The notes below the pieces were generated by a model. It did not search any database. It worked only from the letters and a program-made list of their open reading frames with translations, and was not told the DNA's origin. Source: an uncultured candidate division Zixibacteria bacterium (GTDB lineage: Bacteria; Zixibacteria; MSB-5A5; UBA10806). Taken from it: 64,000 nucleotides of DNA. The position numbers were made by a program, and so were the translations under genes. Positions 2,100-47,019 of the stretch are shown here, one piece after another. Location of the stretch: NCBI GenBank assembly GCA_963801605.1, contig CAWDFP010000006.1, positions 576,001-640,000 on the forward strand. Direction: 5' to 3'. Within the stretch, counting starts at the first letter, position 1. Each line of letters starts with the position of its first letter.

Positions 2100-4122
2100 T
2101 TATGCTACCCGCTCGTCCAGTAGCTCTGTCAATTCCTTTACATTAACAGTATCAATTTTGTCCAGCGCTTTAACGCCATCGGTGAGCATGGTCATGCAGA
2201 ATGGGCAGGCCAGGCCAATGGTCTTGGCGCCGGTGGCCAGCGCTTGTTCGGTGCGTTCGACATTGATATGCTTGCCTCGCGATTCTTCGAGGAACATCCG
2301 TCCTCCGCCTGCGCCGCAGCAGAACGACCAGTCTTTCGATTTTTTCATCTCGATACGCTTGGCTCCGGGCATCGAATCGATAATCTGGCGCGCCGGTTCG
2401 GTAATGCAATTGTGACGGGCCAGGTAGCAGGAGTCGTGGAACGTGATCTCGCCGAGTGGATTGCCGCCGACCTTGAGTTTGCCATCGGAAATAAAACGGG
2501 CCAGAAGCTCGTGGGTATGGTAAACCTCGTAATTGCCCCCAAAATCAGGATATTCATTTTTTAACGTGTTGTAACAATGCGGGCAGTTAGTGAAAATCTT
2601 TTTGACCTGGACCTCATTTAACAGCTCTACCACCGATTGCGCCTGCGTTTGATAAAGATATTCCTCACCCAAACGTCGAGCGGGATCACCTGTGCAGACC
2701 TCATCTTCTCCAAGTATGGCGTACGAAACACCAGCCTTATTCATAAGCCGCACCGTAGCTTGAGAAACCTTGATATTCCTGGCATCAAGCGCCCCGGCAC
2801 AACCCACCCAGAATAGATATTCCGCATCGGGCTTTTCCGAGATATGTTTGACGTCGAGTCCCTGGTACCACTCCGAGCGCTTTTTCTGGCCCAGCCCCCA
2901 GGGATCGCCTGATCTTTCGATGTTTTTAAGGGCCAGGGAACCCTCGCTTGATATTCGCCCCTCATTTAAGACCAGCGATCTTCTGAGTTCCATTAGCATC
3001 GGGACATGCTCAATCAGCAGCGGGCAGGCTCTCATGCAAGCGTAACAGGTTGTGCAATCCCAAATGACATCCTCCGTAATAACATCCTCAATGAAGCGTT
3101 CCGAAAACTCATCGGACTTTTTCTTGAATAGGTATGGCGCCTTCTTTTCGGTATGTTCACGAAGCTCCATAATAATTTTTCGAGGCGAAAGAGGCTTTCC
3201 GGTATTTGTTGCGGGACACTGTTCATGGCAACGCCCGCATTCAGTGCAGGAAAAACCATCAAGAAGCTGTTTCCAGGAGTATTGTTCTGCCCTGGTGACA
3301 CCAAACTCCTCAGCATCCTCAAGTTTGGGAGTAAAAAGTTTACCATTAGGAGTAGTATGCGAAAAAAAGACATTCGGCAACGATGTGAATACGTGCAGAT
3401 GCTTTGAAACCGGCACATAACAAAGAATTCCCAGAAAAAAGAGTAGATGCATCCACCAAAAAATATGCGAATATGCAATATATGTTGCCGAGGCGAGATT
3501 CATTCCGGTAAAGCTTTGCGCCATGATTGAACCTATAAATGATGCGCTCTGATATTTTCCTTGTGCTGCCATGTTGAAACTCTCGGCGAGGAGGCTGAAA
3601 ACCATTAAACCGGCAATGAGAATCAGAATAATTGCCGCCTCCCTGCCGCGGGGCATGCGTTCGCTTCCCGGAAGAAATCGTTTGATAACCGCGATTGCGA
3701 TCCCTATAAGAACCAAAACGCTAAAAAGATCGAGCAAGAATAGAAAAGGCCCGTGCAAGACAGTTCCCAAAATCGGCAAGGCGAAATCCGGCCGAAAAGC
3801 CGTTACCAAAAAAGGATAGTGTCCCAAACGAAATTATTATAAAGCCCCAGAAAATCATAAAATGGGCGCTGCCCATTGTAATCTGATCTAAAAGCCGTCT
3901 TTGTCCGAATACGAATTTGAGGAGTTTCTTAATCCGCGCCCCGGGTCGGTCAATTCGATTCTCGGGTTTAAATGAGAGAAGTAATCGAAGATAAAAGTAA
4001 ACCTCATAAGCAAAGATTGCCAATCCAATAGCCAAAACAAAAACAAAGGCTATCTGCTCCAAGCCCCGTATCGCCATATCAACCGGTTCTGTCACACCAA
4101 GGCCTTTCTCCGAAATCATCAC
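2100..4122 (-). CDS. Membrane-bound Fe-S oxidoreductase, FadF/HdrD-like (TM domain, 2x[4Fe-4S], two CCG domains); one frameshift near 3790-3830
   Basis: ORFs 3721-4122 and 2100-3827 join. Motifs HFMIFWGF, CTECGRCHEQCP, CTTCYACMRACP, HDSCY, CCGAGGG, ACPFC. Confidence 0.88.
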
Positions 4123-4309
4123 TACAGGCGAAAATCGCCCCGAGGAAATTAATCGAGCTTATCAAATACCTCAATAATCACACAGATATATAATCCCGCT
4201 AATAATGGTTGTCAATCAATCTTGGGGAAGAAAACAGAAGAAGTCGCGGATTTAACGGAGGCCGGTTAGTTATTGCCTAATGGAAAAACAATCCAATCCT
4301 AAATTGTTT

Positions 4310-5083
4310 TTAGCGCGGAGTTTTCATCATCTCTACGAAAGCATCAAAATTCCTCACCAGCAATCGCCCTGAAACAGTAGAGATTAATCCCTTTTTTTGG
4401 AATTTGCTTATCGTACGTATGGTGGTTTCTACCGTTGACCCGACGATATCGGCAATATCGCGCCTTGTTAAGCGGATATTTATCAAGATTCCATCCTTAG
4501 TGTGAGTGCCGTGGTTTTCACAAAGCCTGACAATGACTGACGCAATTCTGCTGTCCACCTTTGACGAAACCAGCGAAATAATGACATCATGAGCATCCAT
4601 GAGCTTAGCCCCAAGGAATTTAATTATGCCTCGGGCAATTTCAGGATATTTAGTAAGCAATTGGTCATAGCTTTCATGAGAGAGTCCGTACGCCACTGTA
4701 GACTCTACAGCCTGAGCACTATTCTGATGAGTATCGGCAAACAGCGCGTTGCCGCCACAAAGCTGGCCAGGCACCATGACCTCTAAAACCATTTCCTTTC
4801 CGGAAGCGGATGTTTTCAAGATGCGGACCCGTCCGGCCTTAATCACATACACTCTATTTGCAGAATCGCCCTCCCAAAACAAATACTGGTTTTTTTCGAA
4901 TCGATACTCTTGAAAATAAGGCTCGATATTCGCAATTTCCGCCGGACCAAATCGTTCGAAAAAGGGAACCCTGGCAATAGCCTCGGTTTTTGATGCCAAT
5001 GGCCGAACCTTGCCGCGAGGGATACTCGCCGGATGACCCATGCCGCCAATTTTAGAAATTCCCGCCGGATGCCCGCCGCTCAT
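4310..5083 (-). CDS. Crp/Fnr family transcriptional regulator; may extend upstream to an ACG at 5170
   Basis: cNMP-binding fold (LFWEGD..VYVIKAGRVRI) and HTH LTRRDIADIVGSTVETTIRTISKF. Confidence 0.92.
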   Translation of the reverse strand: MSGGHPAGISKIGGMGHPASIPRGKVRPLASKTEAIARVPFFERFGPAEIANIEPYFQEYRFEKNQYLFWEGDSANRVYVIKAGRVRILKTSASGKEMVLEVMVPGQLCGGNALFADTHQNSAQAVESTVAYGLSHESYDQLLTKYPEIARGIIKFLGAKLMDAHDVIISLVSSKVDSRIASVIVRLCENHGTHTKDGILINIRLTRRDIADIVGSTVETTIRTISKFQKKGLISTVSGRLLVRNFDAFVEMMKTPR

Positions 5084-5443: not shown

Positions 5444-5764
5444 GATTTGCCAGGATAAGGTATGGAAATTGAGTTGTCAACTTTGGTGATTGCATTATTC
5501 TCGGACGCAATCGACTGCAAGCCCAAAAAATCTATTTCAATCTAAATGCAATTATTATATTATAACCCCATGATGTTAGGAACCGAGGCCCGCCACGCCG
5601 GGCATTCGCGAAGGATAATAATTGCCTCAAAACTTTTTACATTTTCCTCCTTTGAGCATTCAGAACAAAATCATAAATACGCGCAGCTACACAATGTTGA
5701 TAAATTTAGAATTTTATAGAAAATAATAGATGGTGATAGGGAGACTTTAATTTAAGGAGCGTTT

Positions 5765-6980
5765 ATGACGAAAAAACTCTTTGTTTTGTTGCTGTTCGTC
5801 CTATTCGGGCTGGCGGCGGCCCAGGAGGCGGTACAAGACACTACGGGTCCACCGGCCCCGGCGCCTCCGACCAATGTCCGGGTAGTTGACAAGCCCAATG
5901 ACGGCGGCCATGGCCTGATCGTTAAATGGGATCTATCAAAAGATGATGTAAATGGGCTTCAAAATGTGGTCTCGTATGATGTGCTACGGTCAAGTTCGCC
6001 GGCTGGCGAGTTTGTAAGCCGGGGAACTATACCCAAGGGACTGGCTCAGTTTGAGGATATGGATGCGACTGAACCTTCAGCAGATAACCCCAACCCCAAT
6101 TTCATGCGAATTAATAGTACCTGGTACTACAAAGTAGTCGCCATTTCCGACCAGCACGTTAATTCTGCTCGCCACCGAGGTTGTGTCTGGAACAACCAAG
6201 GCCAATTTGATTCATATGCAGAAAATTCCGATCCTGATTGCCTCATTTCTTCTAACCGGTCTTCTCTGGGTTTTCATCGCTTCGGCGCGCAAAGGAAAGA
6301 AGCTTTATGTAAGGCCCCTGGCCGGTATCAACGCCGTCGATGATGCCATTGGACGCGCCACCGAAATGGGCAAACCAATCCTCTATATCCTGGGCTTGGG
6401 CACAGCGGGCGATATCGCCACTATCGCAGGTTTTACGATCCTCTCGCGCGTTGCCAGAAGGACCGCCGAATACCAGACCAAAGTCATCGTGCCGGTACAG
6501 GACCCAGTGGTGCTGGCTATCGCACAGGAAACGGTGCGCACCGCCTACCTGGAGGCGGGACGTCCCGACCAGTACAATCCCGATAATATTTTCTTTTTAA
6601 CCTCAATGCAGTTCCCTTACGTGGCCGCAGTCAACGGCATCATGCTCCGCGAGCGGCCGGCGACAAACTTCTACATGGGAACTTTCTACGCCGAATCGCT
6701 GATTCTGGCCGAAACCGGCAATATCGCCGGCTCAATCCAGATCGCCGGCACCGATCAGATTGCCCAGCTACCGTTTTTCGTGGCCGCTACCGATTATACT
6801 CTGATCGGTGAAGAGCTTTACGCGGCCTCGGCGTATCTATCGCAGGAGCCGGTCCAGCTGGGCTCTCTCAAAGCGCAGGACTACACCAAGGCAATTCTTA
6901 TGGTCGTAATCATCCTGGGGGCTATTGCGATCACATTAGGCTGGCCGTTTATTAGAAATCTCGTAACGATTAACCTGTAA
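5765..6980 (+). CDS. Signal peptide + fibronectin type III domain + DUF6754-like membrane domain; frameshift near 6165-6185
   Basis: PAPPTNVRVVD..LIVKW..YYKVVA FN3 pattern in ORF 5765-6343 continues into ORF 6183-6980 (RPLAGINAVDDAIGRATEMGKP, DYTLIGEELYAASAYLS). Confidence 0.75.
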
Positions 6981-6993
6981 CCCGGAGAAAACA

Positions 6994-7616
6994 ATGAAAA
7001 GAGAAATTCCAATTTTGATCGTCGGGATTACAGGCGTAATTATGTTTTTCCAGTATTTTGTCCCGACAGATTGGTCAATGCAACTATTGGGCACCTCCCA
7101 AGACTGGGTCATCGTGATTGGAATTTTGGCCCTACCCCTGGGAATCTGGAGCCTGATCAAGGCCAATGTCATGAAGCTCAAGGTTAAAGGAGAACGCTTT
7201 TACGCGGCTGTTCTCCTTGCTGGATTTTTGGTGATGCTGATATTTGGCCTTCCCCACCGTTCCAGCCTGGAACAGGGCAGTACCTTCATGACCTTGTTTA
7301 CACACCATTCTTATTCCTATTCAGGCAACGATCTTTTCCCTTTTGGCCTTTTTTGTGGCCACGGCCGCCTACCGGGCCTTTCAGGGCCAGATCGGTATTG
7401 GCCACAATTCTTTGCTTACGGCATTCCTGGTGATGTTCCGCTGGTTACCATTGGGCTTTATCAGCACCGTGGACAATGGCATCGTAGCCTGGATACTCTC
7501 GGTGCCCAATATGGCCGCCAATCGCGCCATCACTATGGGTATTGGCCTGGGTGGCGACAGCCACCGCTATTAAGATTATTTTGGGTATTGAACGAACCTA
7601 TATGGGTCATGATTGA
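6994..7616 (+). CDS. Conserved hypothetical polytopic membrane protein; several frameshifts
   Basis: RBS GGAGA then MKREIPILIVGITG; hydrophobic segments continue across frames to ...KIILGIERTYMGHD-stop at 7614-7616. Confidence 0.65.
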
Positions 7617-7628
7617 GAGGTGAATGCA

Positions 7629-8473
7629 ATGACGTTCTTAGAAAAATTGATGCAAGTCGATCGTCGTTGGATCTACCTCGCGATCGGAGTGGCGGTAATT
7701 ATCCCCGCCATCAAAGGTTTCAATGTCCCGGTTTCGGTCTTCTCCAGAGGTTAAAAAAGTCTACGACTTCGTCGAGGGTATTACAGGCAGGTGAATATCT
7801 TTTCGTGGCCATGGATTACGATCCCACCTCGCTGGCGGAGTTAAATCCCATGGCGGAGGCTATCTTAAAGCATGCTTTCTCACGCAACGAGAAAGTGGTT
7901 ATCGTTACTCTGGCGCAGTTTGGACCAGGTATGGTCGAGGAGATAACAGCCCGGCTGGCCAAGGAGTACAACAAGGTCCGAGGCGTTGATTACGTCTTCC
8001 TCGGCTACCGGCCTTATCCGGCAATCACTATTCTGGCCATGGGTGTCGATTTCCGGAGTTCCTTTCCCGGTAGACTACTATGGAACGCCGCTTGATTCTC
8101 TGCCGTTAATGAAAGGGATCAAGAACTTCTACAATGTCAAGGGCGTAATTGACTTAACCGCCGGTAATACCGCCGACATGTGGTTAGTCGATGGCAATGG
8201 ACGTTATGGCTTCCCGCTGGCGATCGGAATCACGGGAGTCATGGCCGCCGACTACTATCAGTATCTGCAAAGCGGCCAGCTTTTCGGCATCATCCCCGGA
8301 ATCAAGGGAGCTGCCGAATATGAAAGCCTGATTAAAAAGCCGGGCGACGGGAATGGACACAGGCCGCCTATCAGGTGGTGGCCCACACGGTGATCATTTT
8401 GTTTATCATTTTATCTAACGTAGCCTATTTTGCCACCCGCAAGGGCAGGGCAAGAAGCGGAGGTGCCAGATGA
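7629..8473 (+). CDS. Conserved hypothetical membrane-anchored protein; several frameshifts
   Basis: RBS GAGGTG, start MTFLEKLMQVDRRWIYL; fragments DYDPTSLAELNPMA, DYVFLGYRP, YLQSGQLFGIIPGIKGAAEYE; ends HTVIILFIILSNVAYF..AR, stop overlapping the next ATG. Confidence 0.65.
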
Positions 8474-9100
8474 CAGCATCCCAATTAATACTAAACGGCA
8501 TAGCGGTATTTCTGACCCTCTGCATTTTCTCATTCCTTTACAAGGATAACCCGTTCTACAAGTTTGCCGAACGGCTTGTAGCGGGAGTGGCCACCGGTTA
8601 CTGGACAGTGCTTCTGTTCCACACGAATTTCACCGATAAGGTGATTACTCCCATTTTCATTAATGGCCAGTTTATCTACATCATTCCGGCTCTTCTGGGA
8701 ATCGCGATGTGGACCAGGTTTTCGAAAAACTACTCCTGGATTTCGCGCTATTCGATCGCCTTCTATATCGGTATCTCTTCAGGGGTCAGGCATACCACTC
8801 ATCTTCTACGCAGCGTATTTTCAAGCAGCTCCAGGCCACGATCAGCACACCGCTTTCTTTCAGTTGGGCCGGCATTAAATGCCTTCCTTATCATTGTGGC
8901 AGTACTCTCGGCTCTGGTTTACTTCTTCTTTCTCCGCGGCTCATAAGGGCACGATGGGCACCATATCCAGAATCGGAATTTATGTTGTTATGATCGGCTT
9001 TGGAGCAGGATTCGGGTTGACAGTTATGGGCCGCGTAGCCCTTTTGGTTCAGAGAATTATCTTCCTCAAAGGGTATGCGATTGCACTCTTTGGCGGTTGA
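8470..9100 (+). CDS. Conserved hypothetical polytopic membrane protein; frameshifts
   Basis: TLCIFSFLYKDNPFYKFAE at the N-terminus; MIGFGAGFGLTVMGRVALL at the C-terminus in ORF 8879-9100. Confidence 0.7.
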
Positions 9101-9124
9101 CAACTAATATCTGGTAATAACTTT

Positions 9125-9159
9125 GGGCATCCTCGGCTTAAACCGGGGATGCCCTTTTT
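9125..9159 (+). terminator. Intrinsic terminator closing the membrane operon
   Basis: GGGCATCCTCGG/CCGGGGATGCCC stem followed by TTTTT. Confidence 0.8.
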
Positions 9160-9274
9160 CATTCCAGCGTGATTTCTAATTAAAAGCCAAAAATTTTCCT
9201 TGTTAATAGTGGCCCATGAAGCATATTTAGAGTGACCTGAAGAAGTTGAGGGACTTTGAGGCCAGGAGAAGCAA

Positions 9275-13005: not shown

Positions 13006-14094
13006 TTAGTCAAGCGCTACCCAGCGGAATGTATAATATCCCGAAACCGGCGTGCCGCCGATATCTTTATAGTAGGTAATTATCTGAAGCTTGTAATGAT
13101 GGCTTCCCGATCTAATCGCATAGACATGACTTTTGGATGACAAGATATGAGTGTTGCCATCATAGTTATACCAATTGGCCATGACCGAGCCAAGATTGTC
13201 AGGGAAATATGCCTGGGGAGCTGTTGGCGCACTATTGGTTTCGCTAAAATTAGTCGGGTCGGTCTGGTCCTGCCAGATTTCATAGGTGCCGCAGGCACCG
13301 GGGCCAAACACCGTTGAGTTTTGATGAATGTCATAATTTGTGAATGCCAGATCCCAATCAGTGGAGGTTCTCGGATCCGCGGGAGTGACGACCGATCCCG
13401 TTGAAAAATCGACATATATCGGACCGCCGCCGGCAGCGTCGAATCTTAGTGTGTCCGGTGCTCCGGAGAATGTCGGGGAGCTTCCCGAATATATATAAAG
13501 AATTGTGATCATTCCCATATTGGGCGGCATACCGGGATTATCGATTGCATGGATTTGGAATTTAACGTAATTCCCGGTGGCATCTTTCATGATATATACA
13601 TAATTGGTGGCGGCCAGGCTGTGTCTGATTGGATCATAGGTATACCATTCATTGATTACCAGACTATAAGAATCACTGGCCCAAGTGGAATCCGCCAGCG
13701 TGGTGGGATCATTAAAGCCCATAAAGTTGGTGGAATCCATTCGCCCCATTGCAGCCAGGTCGACAGCCTCGGCATGGCCCGGCCCTGAAACTCCACCATC
13801 GAGAATTATGCCCGATCGCTTGAACGCGATATTCCAACTGCTGTCAATTGCGGCTTGATTCGAAGTAAGCATTACCGTGTCTTTGCGGGCAAAACCGTAG
13901 TAAACATATTCGGATGTGCTCGTAGCATTTAGCGTGGTTTCCCAGTATCCCCCGCTATTCCACGTTGTCGTCGAAGTCCCCGTGGTATCGTTGGGATTGG
14001 GAATACTGCTGGTTGGCTTGTCCTTTGAGCAGCCCCCGACGATGATCGCGGCGCAGAGTGCCGCCAGAATAAAGAACGTGCGTAATTTCATCAA
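13006..14094 (-). CDS. HmuY family heme-binding lipoprotein with two tandem HmuY-like domains
   Basis: Lipobox IVGGC; repeated W(N/D)(I/L)AF..GPG and WY.YD...H.L....VY........K(F/L)QI; next to a TonB receptor. Confidence 0.8.
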   Translation of the reverse strand: MMKLRTFFILAALCAAIIVGGCSKDKPTSSIPNPNDTTGTSTTTWNSGGYWETTLNATSTSEYVYYGFARKDTVMLTSNQAAIDSSWNIAFKRSGIILDGGVSGPGHAEAVDLAAMGRMDSTNFMGFNDPTTLADSTWASDSYSLVINEWYTYDPIRHSLAATNYVYIMKDATGNYVKFQIHAIDNPGMPPNMGMITILYIYSGSSPTFSGAPDTLRFDAAGGGPIYVDFSTGSVVTPADPRTSTDWDLAFTNYDIHQNSTVFGPGACGTYEIWQDQTDPTNFSETNSAPTAPQAYFPDNLGSVMANWYNYDGNTHILSSKSHVYAIRSGSHHYKLQIITYYKDIGGTPVSGYYTFRWVALD

Positions 14095-14104
14095 TTACTC
14101 CTTT

Positions 14105-16303
14105 TTAGTCGATCTGGTTCGACTGGCCGTCAGCGGCCCCGTTGAATAGATTAATCCTAAAACCGACAGTAAATGACCGCGGCGGCCAGTAACCGTAGGT
14201 TGCATTGACTTTGTTTGCCAGGTTTTCCACACGGAAATAACCCTCGAACGCTTTGTAGAACCTTTTATATAAATTGAGATTCAATACAATCAGCTTGGGC
14301 GCATAAATTTTAGAAATCCGGTCCGGCGTATCGCCCTCGGATGTCCAGAGTTTACGGTCGTGATAAGTGCCCCAAAATGTCAGGCCGGCGCCCAATTGCG
14401 GAACACTAAAAGTATTGGTGAATTTAGCGGTATGCTGGGGACGGTTGATAAGATCGGTATGATCTGTCAGGTTTTTGGCGAGAAGATACATATACGAAAA
14501 TGAAAAATCCCACCCGGTGCAAACTTTAACTTTCGATTCCCATTCCAATCCCTGGGTGCGGGCCTTAACGATATTTTGATATTTATAAACACCGCGCCAA
14601 TAGGTTGGAGTAAACTCCACCAGATTGAAATCTATGAGATTATTAAGATCGTTTCTGAAAAAAGTCAGTCGGTGTAAGCCTCGCCGGCTGTAACTATATT
14701 CCACCGTTGTGGAGTAATTGTTGCTTTGCTCCGGATTGAGGGCGCCTCCGCCGCCGTATACGATATATCCGGCGGCGGAATGATCGAATATGAAATAAAG
14801 CTCTTTGATCGACGGCGCCCGAAAACCTCGACTGGCGGTCCCGCGAAATGTCAATCGATCGCTTGGAGACCATTTCAAATTCAGGCTGGGATTGATATGA
14901 TTACCGTAGGTTTGATGACGTTCCCAGCGGATGCCGGGAAGGATAGTAAAATCTTTAAGCGGTATAATTTCGGCTTGCATATATAGATCGCCAAAATCTA
15001 CCGTCTTTTTATTTCCGATGATTTGAGATGAATTGAGACCGGCATATGACAGATCGAGGCCCGATGTCACAATGAGATTCTTCGATAGAGTATGATTGGC
15101 CTGAAAGGAACCATCGACAATATAATCCTTGGTAAGGGAGCTGTCGTTTTCCACTCCTGCTCTCGTGAACTTTGACCAATCATGATTATAGTAAGAACCA
15201 TGCAATGAAGCCTCGAATACCGTTTTGGGGCTGGCCATATACCTATGCGTGGTCCCAATATCGTAGCGATTGTTCCATTCGTAATCATCATAAATAAAAG
15301 TCTTTTGAAGCGGCTCGAACCATTCCGATTCAATCCACTGTTTTCGCTCGTGCATATACCCGAGGGTAAGCTCATTATAAAATGACTCTTTGGAGTTCAG
15401 GCTTATCTTGGTACTTAGATTGTATCTTTTAATAGCTTCCAAGCCATTGGTATGAGGCGTACTTTTATCAAGATCAAATCCCGCCGTCTCTTCATGTTTA
15501 CCCGAAAACAGAAATCCATATTTGGGGCTCTTCGTTTCGAATTGGAATTCCGGATCGAACGATCTAAATGAACCATATTCAATCGACGATTCCAGGCTTT
15601 TACTCTGAGTCGGTTTTTTGGTGATGATGTTGATCACTCCACCCAGAGCGTCCGAGCCGTATAGAGTTGAACCTGAGCCTTTGACAATCTCGATGCGGTC
15701 AACATCGGAAAGCGAAATTTGTCCGAGATCGACCGAACCGCGCACCTGTCCTATCACGCGGTGGCCATCAATTAGAATTAACACTCTCGAGGGATCAACG
15801 CCTCTTATGGTGGCGCCTTTACCGGAGAGATCATCGTCAACAGTGACTCCCACATGCGAACTTAGCGCCTGATCAACAGTTAACGCGCCGGTGGCAATCA
15901 TATCCTCTCTGTTGATGACCTCGGTGGTGATGGGTACGTCTTTCAGGATATGCGGGGTACGAGTGGCCGTCACGACGATTTTATCGAGTTCCCAGGGGGC
16001 TTCATCTAAGGCTACGCTTAAGACCTGCTGACCATCCTGAGGTAGGATAATTTTTCGGGCAGCCTTTTTAAATCCGATTAATTGAATATTTATTGCATAT
16101 TCTCCTGCCGGTAGATTTTTTATTATAAAGCTTCCATCAGAACCGGCGGCGGCGCCATACTTTGTACCGCTTATGGCAACCCGCGCTCCGGGAAGCACCA
16201 TACCTGTTTGGGCGTCGGTAATCGTTCCCGTGATATCACCCGCAACTGCAATCCTACAGATAAGGGCGGCGAGAATAAAAAGCCAGATAGTTTTTGTCCT
16301 CAC
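14105..16303 (-). CDS. TonB-dependent receptor with N-terminal carboxypeptidase-regulatory-like domain (probable heme/iron uptake)
   Basis: IVVTATRT, LILIDG, RIEIVKGSGSTLYGSDALGGVINIIT, GFRAPS. Likely GTG start at 16303 after RBS AGGGAG. Confidence 0.92.
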   Translation of the reverse strand: MRTKTIWLFILAALICRIAVAGDITGTITDAQTGMVLPGARVAISGTKYGAAAGSDGSFIIKNLPAGEYAINIQLIGFKKAARKIILPQDGQQVLSVALDEAPWELDKIVVTATRTPHILKDVPITTEVINREDMIATGALTVDQALSSHVGVTVDDDLSGKGATIRGVDPSRVLILIDGHRVIGQVRGSVDLGQISLSDVDRIEIVKGSGSTLYGSDALGGVINIITKKPTQSKSLESSIEYGSFRSFDPEFQFETKSPKYGFLFSGKHEETAGFDLDKSTPHTNGLEAIKRYNLSTKISLNSKESFYNELTLGYMHERKQWIESEWFEPLQKTFIYDDYEWNNRYDIGTTHRYMASPKTVFEASLHGSYYNHDWSKFTRAGVENDSSLTKDYIVDGSFQANHTLSKNLIVTSGLDLSYAGLNSSQIIGNKKTVDFGDLYMQAEIIPLKDFTILPGIRWERHQTYGNHINPSLNLKWSPSDRLTFRGTASRGFRAPSIKELYFIFDHSAAGYIVYGGGGALNPEQSNNYSTTVEYSYSRRGLHRLTFFRNDLNNLIDFNLVEFTPTYWRGVYKYQNIVKARTQGLEWESKVKVCTGWDFSFSYMYLLAKNLTDHTDLINRPQHTAKFTNTFSVPQLGAGLTFWGTYHDRKLWTSEGDTPDRISKIYAPKLIVLNLNLYKRFYKAFEGYFRVENLANKVNATYGYWPPRSFTVGFRINLFNGAADGQSNQID

Positions 16304-16414
16304 CCATGTCTCCCTGTTAAAAGGTGCCCCATCGTTGTGAAAAAAATCCCAATTCCGCATCACGCGGCAATAGTAAAAAACCCCCCTAATGGGGGGTATG
16401 ATATAGATCATAAA

Positions 16415-44357: not shown

Positions 44358-45666
44358 ATGAGAAAAACACTGGCCGCGTTGTTGATATGCCTGGCCAGCT
44401 GGTCGGTTGCCATCGCTGGCAAAACCACCATCTACACGCTCCCCAACGGGATGGAAGTCATTCTTAAGGAAAATCACGCTACACCGCTGGTATCCTCGGT
44501 GGTGGTAGTCAAGGCTGGAAGCAAGTACGAAAACGATCAGAACAATGGCTTTACGCATCTTTTGGAGCACATGCTTTTCAACGGCACCGAAACTCGTGAC
44601 CGCGTCCAACTCAATGAGGGCGTTCGCGATCATGGCGGCTATATCAACGCTTTCACTCAGCAAGCCTTAACTGGTTATCTGATTGTCGTTCCCAAGGAGT
44701 TTACTGATTATGGTCTCGATATCCAGTCTGATCAGCTTTTCCATTCAATTTTGCCCGAGGCCGAATTCCCTAAGGAGCGCGATATCGTGGCAGAGGAGAT
44801 TAAAAAGGACAACGACAATATTGAAAATGTGGCTCAGGATTTCTTTAATTCGGTAGTATTCTCCGGCACTCCCTACGCCAGGCCGGTTATCGGATATGAG
44901 ATCTACGATCAGGAATGTCTCTCGCGATGAAGTTATGAAATATTACAAAGAACACTATGTCCCCAATAACATGACAGTCCTGATTATCGGAGATTTTGAA
45001 ACGCCTCAAATGCAGGAGATGGTAACTAAATATTTCGGTTCCGTTCCCCGCGGCAATCCTCCGGAGCTGCCGGAGTTCAAAGTTGCTCCGCCATATAAGT
45101 CGGAAATTGTTACCAAAAAATATCCAACCAAAACAACTTATATTCAAATCTCATTTCCTGCTCCGCTTTTTAGCGATTCCGATTACTATGCTTTCGATGT
45201 CTTAACACAGATTCTCAACTCCGGGGATTCATCGCCCCTCAATAAGGCTCTCACCGATGGAGAAAAACCGCTGGCAACCGAGGTCTCAACATCGTTGGAA
45301 TTAGAAAAAGAAATTTCGCTTATCAATGTTTCGGTTAAAACCGATAAGCCGGAAAATGCCAAACCGATTCTCGACACTACTTTGAAAGTGCTCAAAGAAC
45401 TCACGTCGAGAAAATTTAATACCAAAGATGTCAGCCGAGTGGTTGTCCCCAATAAGGTTGATGAGATAAAGCTTGAGGAGAAGCTGCATTATTATGGTAT
45501 TATGAAAGCCCCCTACCTGGCCACCTGCGGATACAGTTTCCTTGAAAACTATATCGATAATCTGTCGAAAGTTAAGCCGGAGCAAGTTGGGGCGGTTGCA
45601 AAGAAATATTTTGATAATCCTCAATATGTAGCCTGTGCTTTGGTACCTGCAGCGGAGGTGGAGTAA
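44358..45666 (+). CDS. Secreted M16 zinc peptidase, catalytic subunit; frameshift near 44898
   Basis: Signal peptide, TLPNG, HLLEH (HxxEH), NAFT, YVPNNM. Confidence 0.88.
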
Positions 45667-47019
45667 TGAAAACGAAAATAATCGTCATCGGCCTGAGCCT
45701 GGCTATTCTGACAGGGTTCTTTTCATTGCGTACCCAGGCGCAGACCAGTGAGAAGTACGGTAAATTTATCCATGAAGTGCTTCCTAATGGTTTGGACCTT
45801 ATTATCAGCTACAATCCCGACAGCCGGGTGTTTGCGATAAATATTCTGGGCAAAAACAGATCGGCCAATGAACCACGGGGTAAAGACGGGATCACCGATT
45901 TTGTCAATCGCATGTTAACCCAGGGCGCCGATGGAATGAATGCCGAGGAGATTCAAAATAAACTCGACGATATTGGAGCCACTATCACTGCCAACGATAA
46001 CCCATACATACCTTATGACGACCGCTATACGACACGGGCTTATTCATTTATCAAATTTGAGACTATCGATGAGTATGCTAAACAGGGCACGGATCTTCTT
46101 TACCGTGTCGTAGCCAAGCCAACGTTTCCGGAAAGCGAAATAGCTCGTACTCAAAAAAAGGTGATGGGAATTATCGGAATGAGTTCCGGGTCTACCTATC
46201 AAACTTGCCGTGATCTGATGTACAAAACTCTTTTTGCGGGGCATCCTTTCGAAAAGACTGTGCTTGGTACGCCTGCTACAGTGGGTTCGCTAACAAAGGA
46301 TGATCTGGTCAGGTTATTGCAGGCATTTCTATGCTCCTAATAATATAATTATGGCGATAGCGACAAACATTGATCCCGATACTGTTAAAAATTGGATACA
46401 ATCGACATTCGGTAAGATGCCCAAAGACGATTCTCCTTATGCCGTAGTAGGCAGCCCGACCAAACCGAGCGGAGTTGATGAAGTCCATCAGGAGATGGAT
46501 AAGGAACAGATTTATATTTATATGGGAATGATTGTACCGGGGCTTAAATCACCGGATGCTCCCGCCATCAATATGGCAACCGCGATACTTTCCTCGCGTA
46601 TGGGTTTACAGCTTCGCGAAAAGCAAGGCCTGGCTTATTCGGTGGGCATGGATGTTGATTTTATGCCGGATTTCGGTTGGGCAGTAGCATCAATGGGTAC
46701 CGGATTTCAAAACTACGATCCTGCTGTTAGCGGTATGATAGGCCAGATAAACGCTTTGGTTACCAACGAACCCTCCGCCGAGGAACTGGCCAAAGCCCAA
46801 AACTCGACTTGGGGTTCGATGCTTCTTTCACGCGCGTCTCGCATCAATCAAGCTTTCTATATGTGCAGAAATGAGTTTCTGGGTGTTGGTTACGATTACG
46901 AGAACGATTATCTCGCCAAAATCAGACAGGTTACTCCATCCGATGTGAAACATGCCGTACACGATTATTTCGACGTATACGACATGATAATTGCCACTGC
47001 GGGCAAAAAGGCTAATTAG
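45666..47019 (+). CDS. Secreted M16 peptidase, non-catalytic subunit; frameshift near 46312
   Basis: VLPNG, no HxxEH, SSRM..QLREKQGLAYSV. Confidence 0.85.

Follow-up and report, generated by a model that had tools for sequence, protein, structure and literature searches.

A conserved four-protein membrane module of Zixibacteria that likely belongs to a novel type of ATP-powered transport machinery

A four-gene membrane operon, g1 to g4, lies on the forward strand of a 64,000-nucleotide stretch of DNA (the window; positions 576001-640000 of contig C6) from an uncultured Zixibacteria genome that is 87% complete (G000); gene coordinates below count within the window. The operon is one copy of a conserved module, kept by the phylum in about five old versions, which likely contributes to a transport machine of a novel, ATP-driven type. 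Tentatively, and at appreciably less than an even chance, we propose that the four proteins would assemble as one heterotetramer and serve as the predicted cargo-specific part of an ATP-driven importer with a shared ATPase pair. A broader reading comes close to an even chance without quite reaching it: an actin/Hsp70-fold ATPase pair, in place of an ABC, P-type or AAA+ ATPase, would drive about five exchangeable, pseudo-symmetric four-protein modules, either as a new primary transporter class or as an envelope motor, and this machinery would be a phylum-wide core that reaches the Archaea, with single modules swapped among lineages as operon-sized blocks.

The module is strongly conserved in its organization. 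Among the best 80 of 538 loci found, searched by g1 alone, 74 contained a complete module and 46 contained at least two g1 genes. The order g1-g2-g3-g4 was kept in 452 of 453 testable adjacencies, with one broken and 16 more cut by the end of a locus. Five natural g3-g4 fusions, with one extra membrane helix, and one g2-g3 fusion were also found, so that the fixed gene order and the fusions together bear out an earlier suggestion that the four membrane proteins are co-conserved. DUF6754, the family to which the C-terminal part of g1 belongs, was present in all 41 relatives (three to six matches each) and in all 151 genomes of a phylum sample overlapping these relatives, with five matches in 93 genomes and four to six in 141, a match not being strictly a copy; it was found in 0 of 14 control genomes. 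Two further modules of G000, each broken once, lie at C6:506309-509795 and C6:1480981-1484337, which gives this genome three modules versus the usual five. Among named relatives, those closest to g1 are Zixibacteria records. At E 0.001 the g3 profile retrieved 5,305 cluster representatives, and the named or labelled relatives include Eisenbacteria, Fermentibacteria, Planctomycetes, Bacillota, Chloroflexota, Nitrospirota and Bathyarchaeota; among organisms in culture, planctomycetes carry relatives of g2 as well as g3-g4 fusions. A single module comprises fewer than 1,200 residues.

The class analysis covered 134 non-redundant complete modules from genomes other than G000, after 9 of 143 were dropped as near-duplicates. 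Paralogues in the same locus were 38-52% identical (median), versus 81-89% for the best match in other loci, and none of the 98 modules from multi-module loci had its nearest neighbour in its own locus. With six clusters, 0 of 74 same-locus pairs fell into one cluster. The classes are cognate across the four genes: the nearest neighbour of each gene lay inside the cluster of its module in 133-134 of 134 cases, and the four distance matrices, one per gene, are correlated with one another (rho 0.70-0.82). Judged by these divergences and by the cognate classes, the module versions are old and maintained, not recent duplicates. In one class a gene of 203-223 amino acids (aa) without a Pfam match is located between g2 and g3 (L006:4153-4800, L009, L010).

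The operon had been described as self-contained and as devoid of an ATPase; neither statement was supported, in view of the several old paralogous classes and of the genomic linkage, in relatives, to an ATPase of the GlmL/MutL type and its partner. When the neighbours in the 80 loci were clustered, 7 loci had a protein of the MutL/GlmL family, and 11 had a protein of 375 aa, the partner, upstream of the module arrays within 7 kb. The long MutL was found in 38 of the 41 relatives and the partner in 39, mostly as a single match each. Ten regions from nine genomes, selected for nearby coordinates, were used for synteny: MutL, the partner and a run of modules follow each other on one strand in G037, G029, G040 and G031 and are divergent in G030, and among the other fetched regions one had the partner adjacent with MutL about 10 kb off, one had MutL alone, and two had modules alone. 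Open reading frames (ORFs) of 932-954 aa that match both MutL and the partner occur in G018 (C146), G028 (C15) and G034 (C25); by their sequences, these are natural MutL-partner fusions, present as second copies.

The linked ATPase is homologous to the GlmL/MutL family (PF13941, E 5e-122; NF040745; TIGR01319) and to Or-4 (NF040744), and 13 of 13 MutL ORFs contain both ASKHA phosphate-loop motifs, a set in which two genes were each fetched twice. On the other hand, it is about 620 rather than about 455 aa long, sits with membrane modules, and stays below the three NCBIfam cut-offs in the two proteins scored (NF040745, 227-235 versus 475 bits; NF040744, 218-233 versus 600 bits; TIGR01319, 173 versus 204 bits). 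Mutase co-occurrence was assessed with glutamate mutase E, ornithine aminomutase being outside the search, and only 2 of the 41 relatives had the former above cut-off. GlmL/MutL is called a chaperone for glutamate mutase reactivation in PMC4682846; because the long form falls below the GlmL and Or-4 cut-offs and glutamate mutase E is so rare, it is not the mutase chaperone described there.

The four genes are tightly packed, with gaps of 13 nt (g1-g2) and 12 nt (g2-g3) and an ATGA overlap of g3 and g4 at 8470-8473. g1 (5765-6980, +), preceded by a Shine–Dalgarno-like AAGGAG at 5754-5759 (+), encodes a signal-peptide-like N terminus, an FN3 domain, a transmembrane (TM) helix, the DUF6754 alpha/beta domain and a C-terminal TM helix. 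g2 (6994-7616, +) and g4 (8470-9100, +) encode six-helix membrane proteins of about 205 and about 208 aa, the latter with Gly/Ser-rich helices, and g3 (7629-8473, +) encodes about 280 aa forming a TM helix, a Rossmann-like alpha/beta domain and a second TM helix. An intrinsic-terminator-like hairpin at 9125-9164 (+), whose 12-bp stem, with nine G-C pairs, and T run lie at 9125-9154, follows g4; it has the longest stem and the most G-C among eight terminator-like sites found in a scan (7.1 expected). The close packing, the strong terminator and the Gly-rich GFGAGFG and AITMGIGLG helices given in the preliminary description could all be recovered from the sequence, and its layout of g1 was confirmed for FN3 by fold search and for DUF6754 by Pfam: the C-terminal 255 residues match PF20539 with 389 bits (cut-off 27, E 8e-117, profile positions 2-254 of 257). 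As stated in that description, DUF6754 lacks an assigned function, with none on record in the searches made. No Pfam or NCBIfam family was matched above cut-off by g2, g3 or g4, and member scans (110 g4, 101 g2 and 108 g3) gave the same result, in agreement with the absence of a known family stated earlier.

Models of natural relatives were used for the folds. The model of the g1 orthologue in L001 has a predicted local distance difference test score (pLDDT) of 90.3, and its residues ~33-153 adopt an FN3 fold (VIA Z 13.2, root-mean-square deviation (rmsd) 1.7, 94 aligned), matches to which filled the fold searches with this model. A natural g3-g4 fusion was modelled with a pLDDT of 85.9 and a predicted template modelling score of 0.83, 5 of its 65 alignment rows spanning both parts. 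The g3 core is Rossmann-like, its best VIA match (Z 9.6, rmsd 3.6, 141 aligned) sharing the top rank with dehydrogenases and RCK domains; VIA returned only such tied Rossmann folds for the fusion model, with g4 barely covered, and Foldseek gave no clear match (best E 1e-3, TM by target ≤0.40). In the Atlas, where the search finds about two-thirds of best matches, the matches of g4 were confined to unnamed clusters of its own kind (TM 0.86-0.91), with named families reaching at most 0.30, and g3 had no usable named match. A PDB sequence search with the profiles of g2, g3, g4, MutL and the partner yielded nothing significant, and the g1 profile hit titin FN3 only. A four-chain complex prediction with g2 as partner scored 0.78, versus 0.74 with g3 replaced, and was not used either way.

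From the lysine and arginine flanks of the membrane helices, the signal peptide with FN3, and the fusions, the g1 core is predicted to be inside and the g3 core outside, with g2 N-in and g4 N-out; FN3 of g1 would then be outside and its DUF6754 domain cytoplasmic. In the fusion model, g3 runs through a TM helix, a helix, six strand-helix units and a TM helix, and the DUF6754 part of g1 shows the same order of 15 predicted structural elements, so that g3 does share the TM-soluble-TM layout of g1. The best weak hhalign match between g1 and g3 pairs both C-terminal helices in that register, at a probability of 2.3%, and the profile-versus-decoy z is 0.0; for g2 and g4 the values are 0.4% and 1.4. 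Paralogy of g1 and g3 is therefore plausible on the models but not established, since alternating strands and helices are common and the sequence tests were negative. The earlier idea of distant paralogues on opposite membrane faces thus stands, as a prediction, for the faces, and for the paralogy it has the equal element order on its side and the sequence tests against it. In one locus (L045:1941-3413), g1 encodes 490 aa, with an in-frame extension of about 86 residues within DUF6754 that possibly arose by duplication or misassembly.

Invariant polar residues are found in or at the membrane helices (L001 numbering): E34, R83, R93, R187 and R194 of g4, R132 of g2, H254 and N265 of g3, and D376 and K379 of g1. 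The second TM helix of g3 carries a near-invariant Q/H/N, and the most conserved part is the cytoplasmic DUF6754 domain of g1. The outer face is variable: in relatives, the g2 loop after helix 3 takes up large inserts with FG-GAP and WD40-type Pfam matches, and g3 has outer inserts of up to ~550 residues, among them what we take to be Ig-like and HEAT-like domains.

In the proposed importer, several modules would draw on one actin-fold ATPase of the GlmL/MutL type, together with the 375-aa partner. The membrane core would consist of g2 (N-in) and g4 (N-out) in opposite orientations, g3 would contact the cargo through its outer Rossmann-like domain, and the very conserved cytoplasmic DUF6754 domain of g1 may be the ATPase docking site. 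By analogy with the chaperone-like role of GlmL/MutL, the nucleotide cycle of the ATPase could force the module to alternate between an outward and an inward state. Peptide-sized molecules as cargo are a guess, because peptidase- or transglutaminase-like genes flank some modules but not this one.

Several observations weigh against this proposal. No MutL match was found in G000, not even at the positions that MutL occupies in G002 and G003; since this genome is 87% complete, the absence could reflect either loss or an assembly gap, and the partner is intact at C11:148803-149933. MutL is unlinked to modules in some relatives (for example, G013), no conserved catabolic gene was found among the flanking genes of the 80 loci, and no sequence homology was detected between g1 and g3 or between g2 and g4. 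Large adhesin-like outer inserts are unusual for small-solute transporters. The five DUF6754 matches in 93 of 151 genomes, together with tandem operons holding one module of each class, fit a fixed stoichiometry better than substrate-specific importers.

The last point leads to the alternative that survives best, which we consider unlikely yet a serious contender: all classes, about five different modules, would co-assemble at fixed stoichiometry into one envelope machine driven by a single ATPase, for instance a ring for macromolecule export, a surface-attachment device or a membrane-remodelling device. It is favoured by the near-constant DUF6754 count, and is consistent with the arrangement of one module of each class per locus in tandem single-strand arrays, with the FN3, FG-GAP and WD40-type outer domains, and with presumed NfeD- and SPFH-like genes between modules in L115 (15765-17119) and L122 (9322-11192), the latter with a presumed CBS-like gene as well. 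However, modules are scattered singly in G000 and other genomes, within flanks of 7 kb some loci of Eisenbacteria contain a single module, and the window copy was seemingly exchanged alone.

A self-contained, ion-coupled secondary transporter, for which the ATPase genes would be fellow travellers or assembly factors, appears quite unlikely. The preliminary description had proposed a 2+2 complex, such as an unclassified secondary transporter; of this, the four co-conserved proteins and, as a prediction, the opposite faces of g1 and g3 were upheld, and a stand-alone transporter is possible but less likely. The opposite orientation of the two pairs, the conserved Glu, Arg and His near the membrane, the operon's own terminator and the missing MutL of G000 are all compatible with it, but nearly all relatives have both the ATPase and its partner, with no mutase to serve, the two are linked to arrays and, in three genomes, fused to each other, and the most conserved part is the cytoplasmic DUF6754 domain. 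It also seems improbable, to a degree beyond the secondary transporter, that the module is a transmembrane sensor, in which the g3 outer domain binds a ligand and g2 and g4 relay the signal to DUF6754, switching the ATPase pair to act on a cytoplasmic target. Ligand-binding-type folds on both faces, the variable receptor-like outer inserts and the presence of RCK among the tied best g3 folds (KtrA Z 9.4, rmsd 3.6, 132 aligned) point to it, but many unrelated Rossmann folds score as well as RCK, the neighbours include no conserved output gene of the kinase, cyclase or DNA-binding kind, and about 16 membrane helices would exceed the needs of a receptor.

The window copy is broken by frameshifts, which, as noted previously, hide all four genes. 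Aligned to L045 (89-92% identical; 6705-6839 outside the alignment), its coding DNA has 14 one-base indels, of which 13 are insertions in the window: one in g1 (near 6167), four in g2 (near 7301, 7379, 7413 and 7557), five in g3 (near 7736, 7784, 8066, 8348 and 8355) and four in g4 (near 8786, 8812, 8873 and 8928). The flanks have no break in seven genes and one in the Fe-S oxidoreductase gene (2100-4122). At codons away from gaps, no sign of relaxed selection and no nonsense codon was found against the congener G001, with a ratio of nonsynonymous to synonymous substitution (dN/dS) of 0.063-0.088 and 0 in-frame stops; one aligned stop is seen in g1 against the more distant G002. Over 700 kb of C6, a simple coding model called 174 putative breaks, patchily, with at least four in 8 of 205 bins of 3.4 kb; it detects only about four breaks in this operon and thus undercounts. 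Genes that we take to be housekeeping genes are split elsewhere in the same assembly. Given the predominance of insertions, the lack of stops against G001, the low dN/dS and the patchy breaks across the assembly, the frameshifts are probably assembly or sequencing errors, though their density here is high. That the copy is instead a real, recently decaying pseudo-operon, which would leave the family real in either case, is very improbable: 14 breaks in 3.3 kb beside nearly unbroken flanks, single breaks in the two other modules of G000 and the missing MutL would suit it, but the reading frames, the bias to insertions and the likewise split housekeeping genes argue against it. Elsewhere in the window, more putative frameshifts were noted at ~32230, 34889, 44916-46331 and 61305, in genes that presumably include mfd-like and M16 peptidase-like ones.

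The operon also differs from its surroundings in divergence. Synonymous divergence (pS) from G001 is 0.25-0.38 in the operon, versus 0.79-0.82 for the Crp gene on the same G001 contig and 0.59-0.78 for other flanking genes; the second module of G000 gives 0.59 (g3) and 0.68 (g1). Compared with G002, the operon is near the background (0.64-0.71 versus 0.72-0.81). The low-divergence block (5727-9159, +; 89-92% nucleotide identity versus 71-76% in the flanks) coincides with the operon ends. Most simply read, the whole operon was recently replaced by exchange among congeneric lineages, with a chimeric join in the assembly as the alternative; provided that reads from two populations had been combined, either could also explain the pile-up of errors here. 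The pattern thus suggests an operon-sized exchange of a single copy.

Some neighbouring genes recur. DUF3857/transglutaminase-like genes lie directly 3′ of one module class (L008:13388-14795 and four other loci; G000, C6:502531-506300), and a presumed M48-like peptidase gene lies upstream of that class in G000 and G001. A basic protein of ~105 aa without a Pfam or NCBIfam match follows the last module in L043 (10513-10836) and 10 other loci, and a presumably pyruvate phosphate dikinase-like gene (18 loci) comes next. In the window, a Crp/Fnr-family regulator and a membrane Fe-S/CCG oxidoreductase (2100-5083, −; break near 3800) are divergent from the operon; a link to them was rejected, this adjacency occurring in L045 and the window only. 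Further on (13006-16411, −) are what we take to be a TonB-dependent receptor-like gene and then a HmuY-like lipoprotein gene.

Among the closest known families and systems, PF20539 describes the C-terminal 255 residues of g1 and so one of the four proteins, g2-g4 being without a model. In group II energy-coupling factor (ECF) transporters, a single energising unit serves several exchangeable membrane modules. The likeness is one of logic only: no ATP-binding cassette (ABC)-type ATPase, EcfT or S-component family was matched by g1-g4 (best weak match, TMD0_ABC in 14 of 101 g2, E 4e-4), no conserved ABC ATPase occurs among the module neighbours, and the modules consist of four proteins with soluble domains on both faces. 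RCK-gated Ktr/Trk channels resemble the g3 core in their RCK domains (Z 8.6-9.4); however, unrelated Rossmann folds match equally well, the domain of g3 is predicted to lie outside the cell, and no TrkH/KtrB pore family was matched in Pfam by 110 g4 and 101 g2 members. NqrD/NqrE and RnfA/RnfE are inverted pairs of two ~200-aa six-helix subunits, as is predicted for g2 and g4, but the latter have no invariant Cys, no family match and no detectable mutual homology, and no redox subunits are nearby. No literature naming DUF6754 or describing the module system was found within a scope that left out subscription journals and supplements, which may describe it. Three of the four membrane proteins lack a family model. 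New in this work are the sorting of the modules into classes, the count across the phylum, the analysis of the frameshift errors and the suggested exchange bounded by the operon.

A module present in every sampled genome of the phylum, in about five old versions, belongs to the core biology of these poorly known bacteria. If it is true that an actin-fold ATPase drives it, the module would represent a new coupling of ATP to membrane work.

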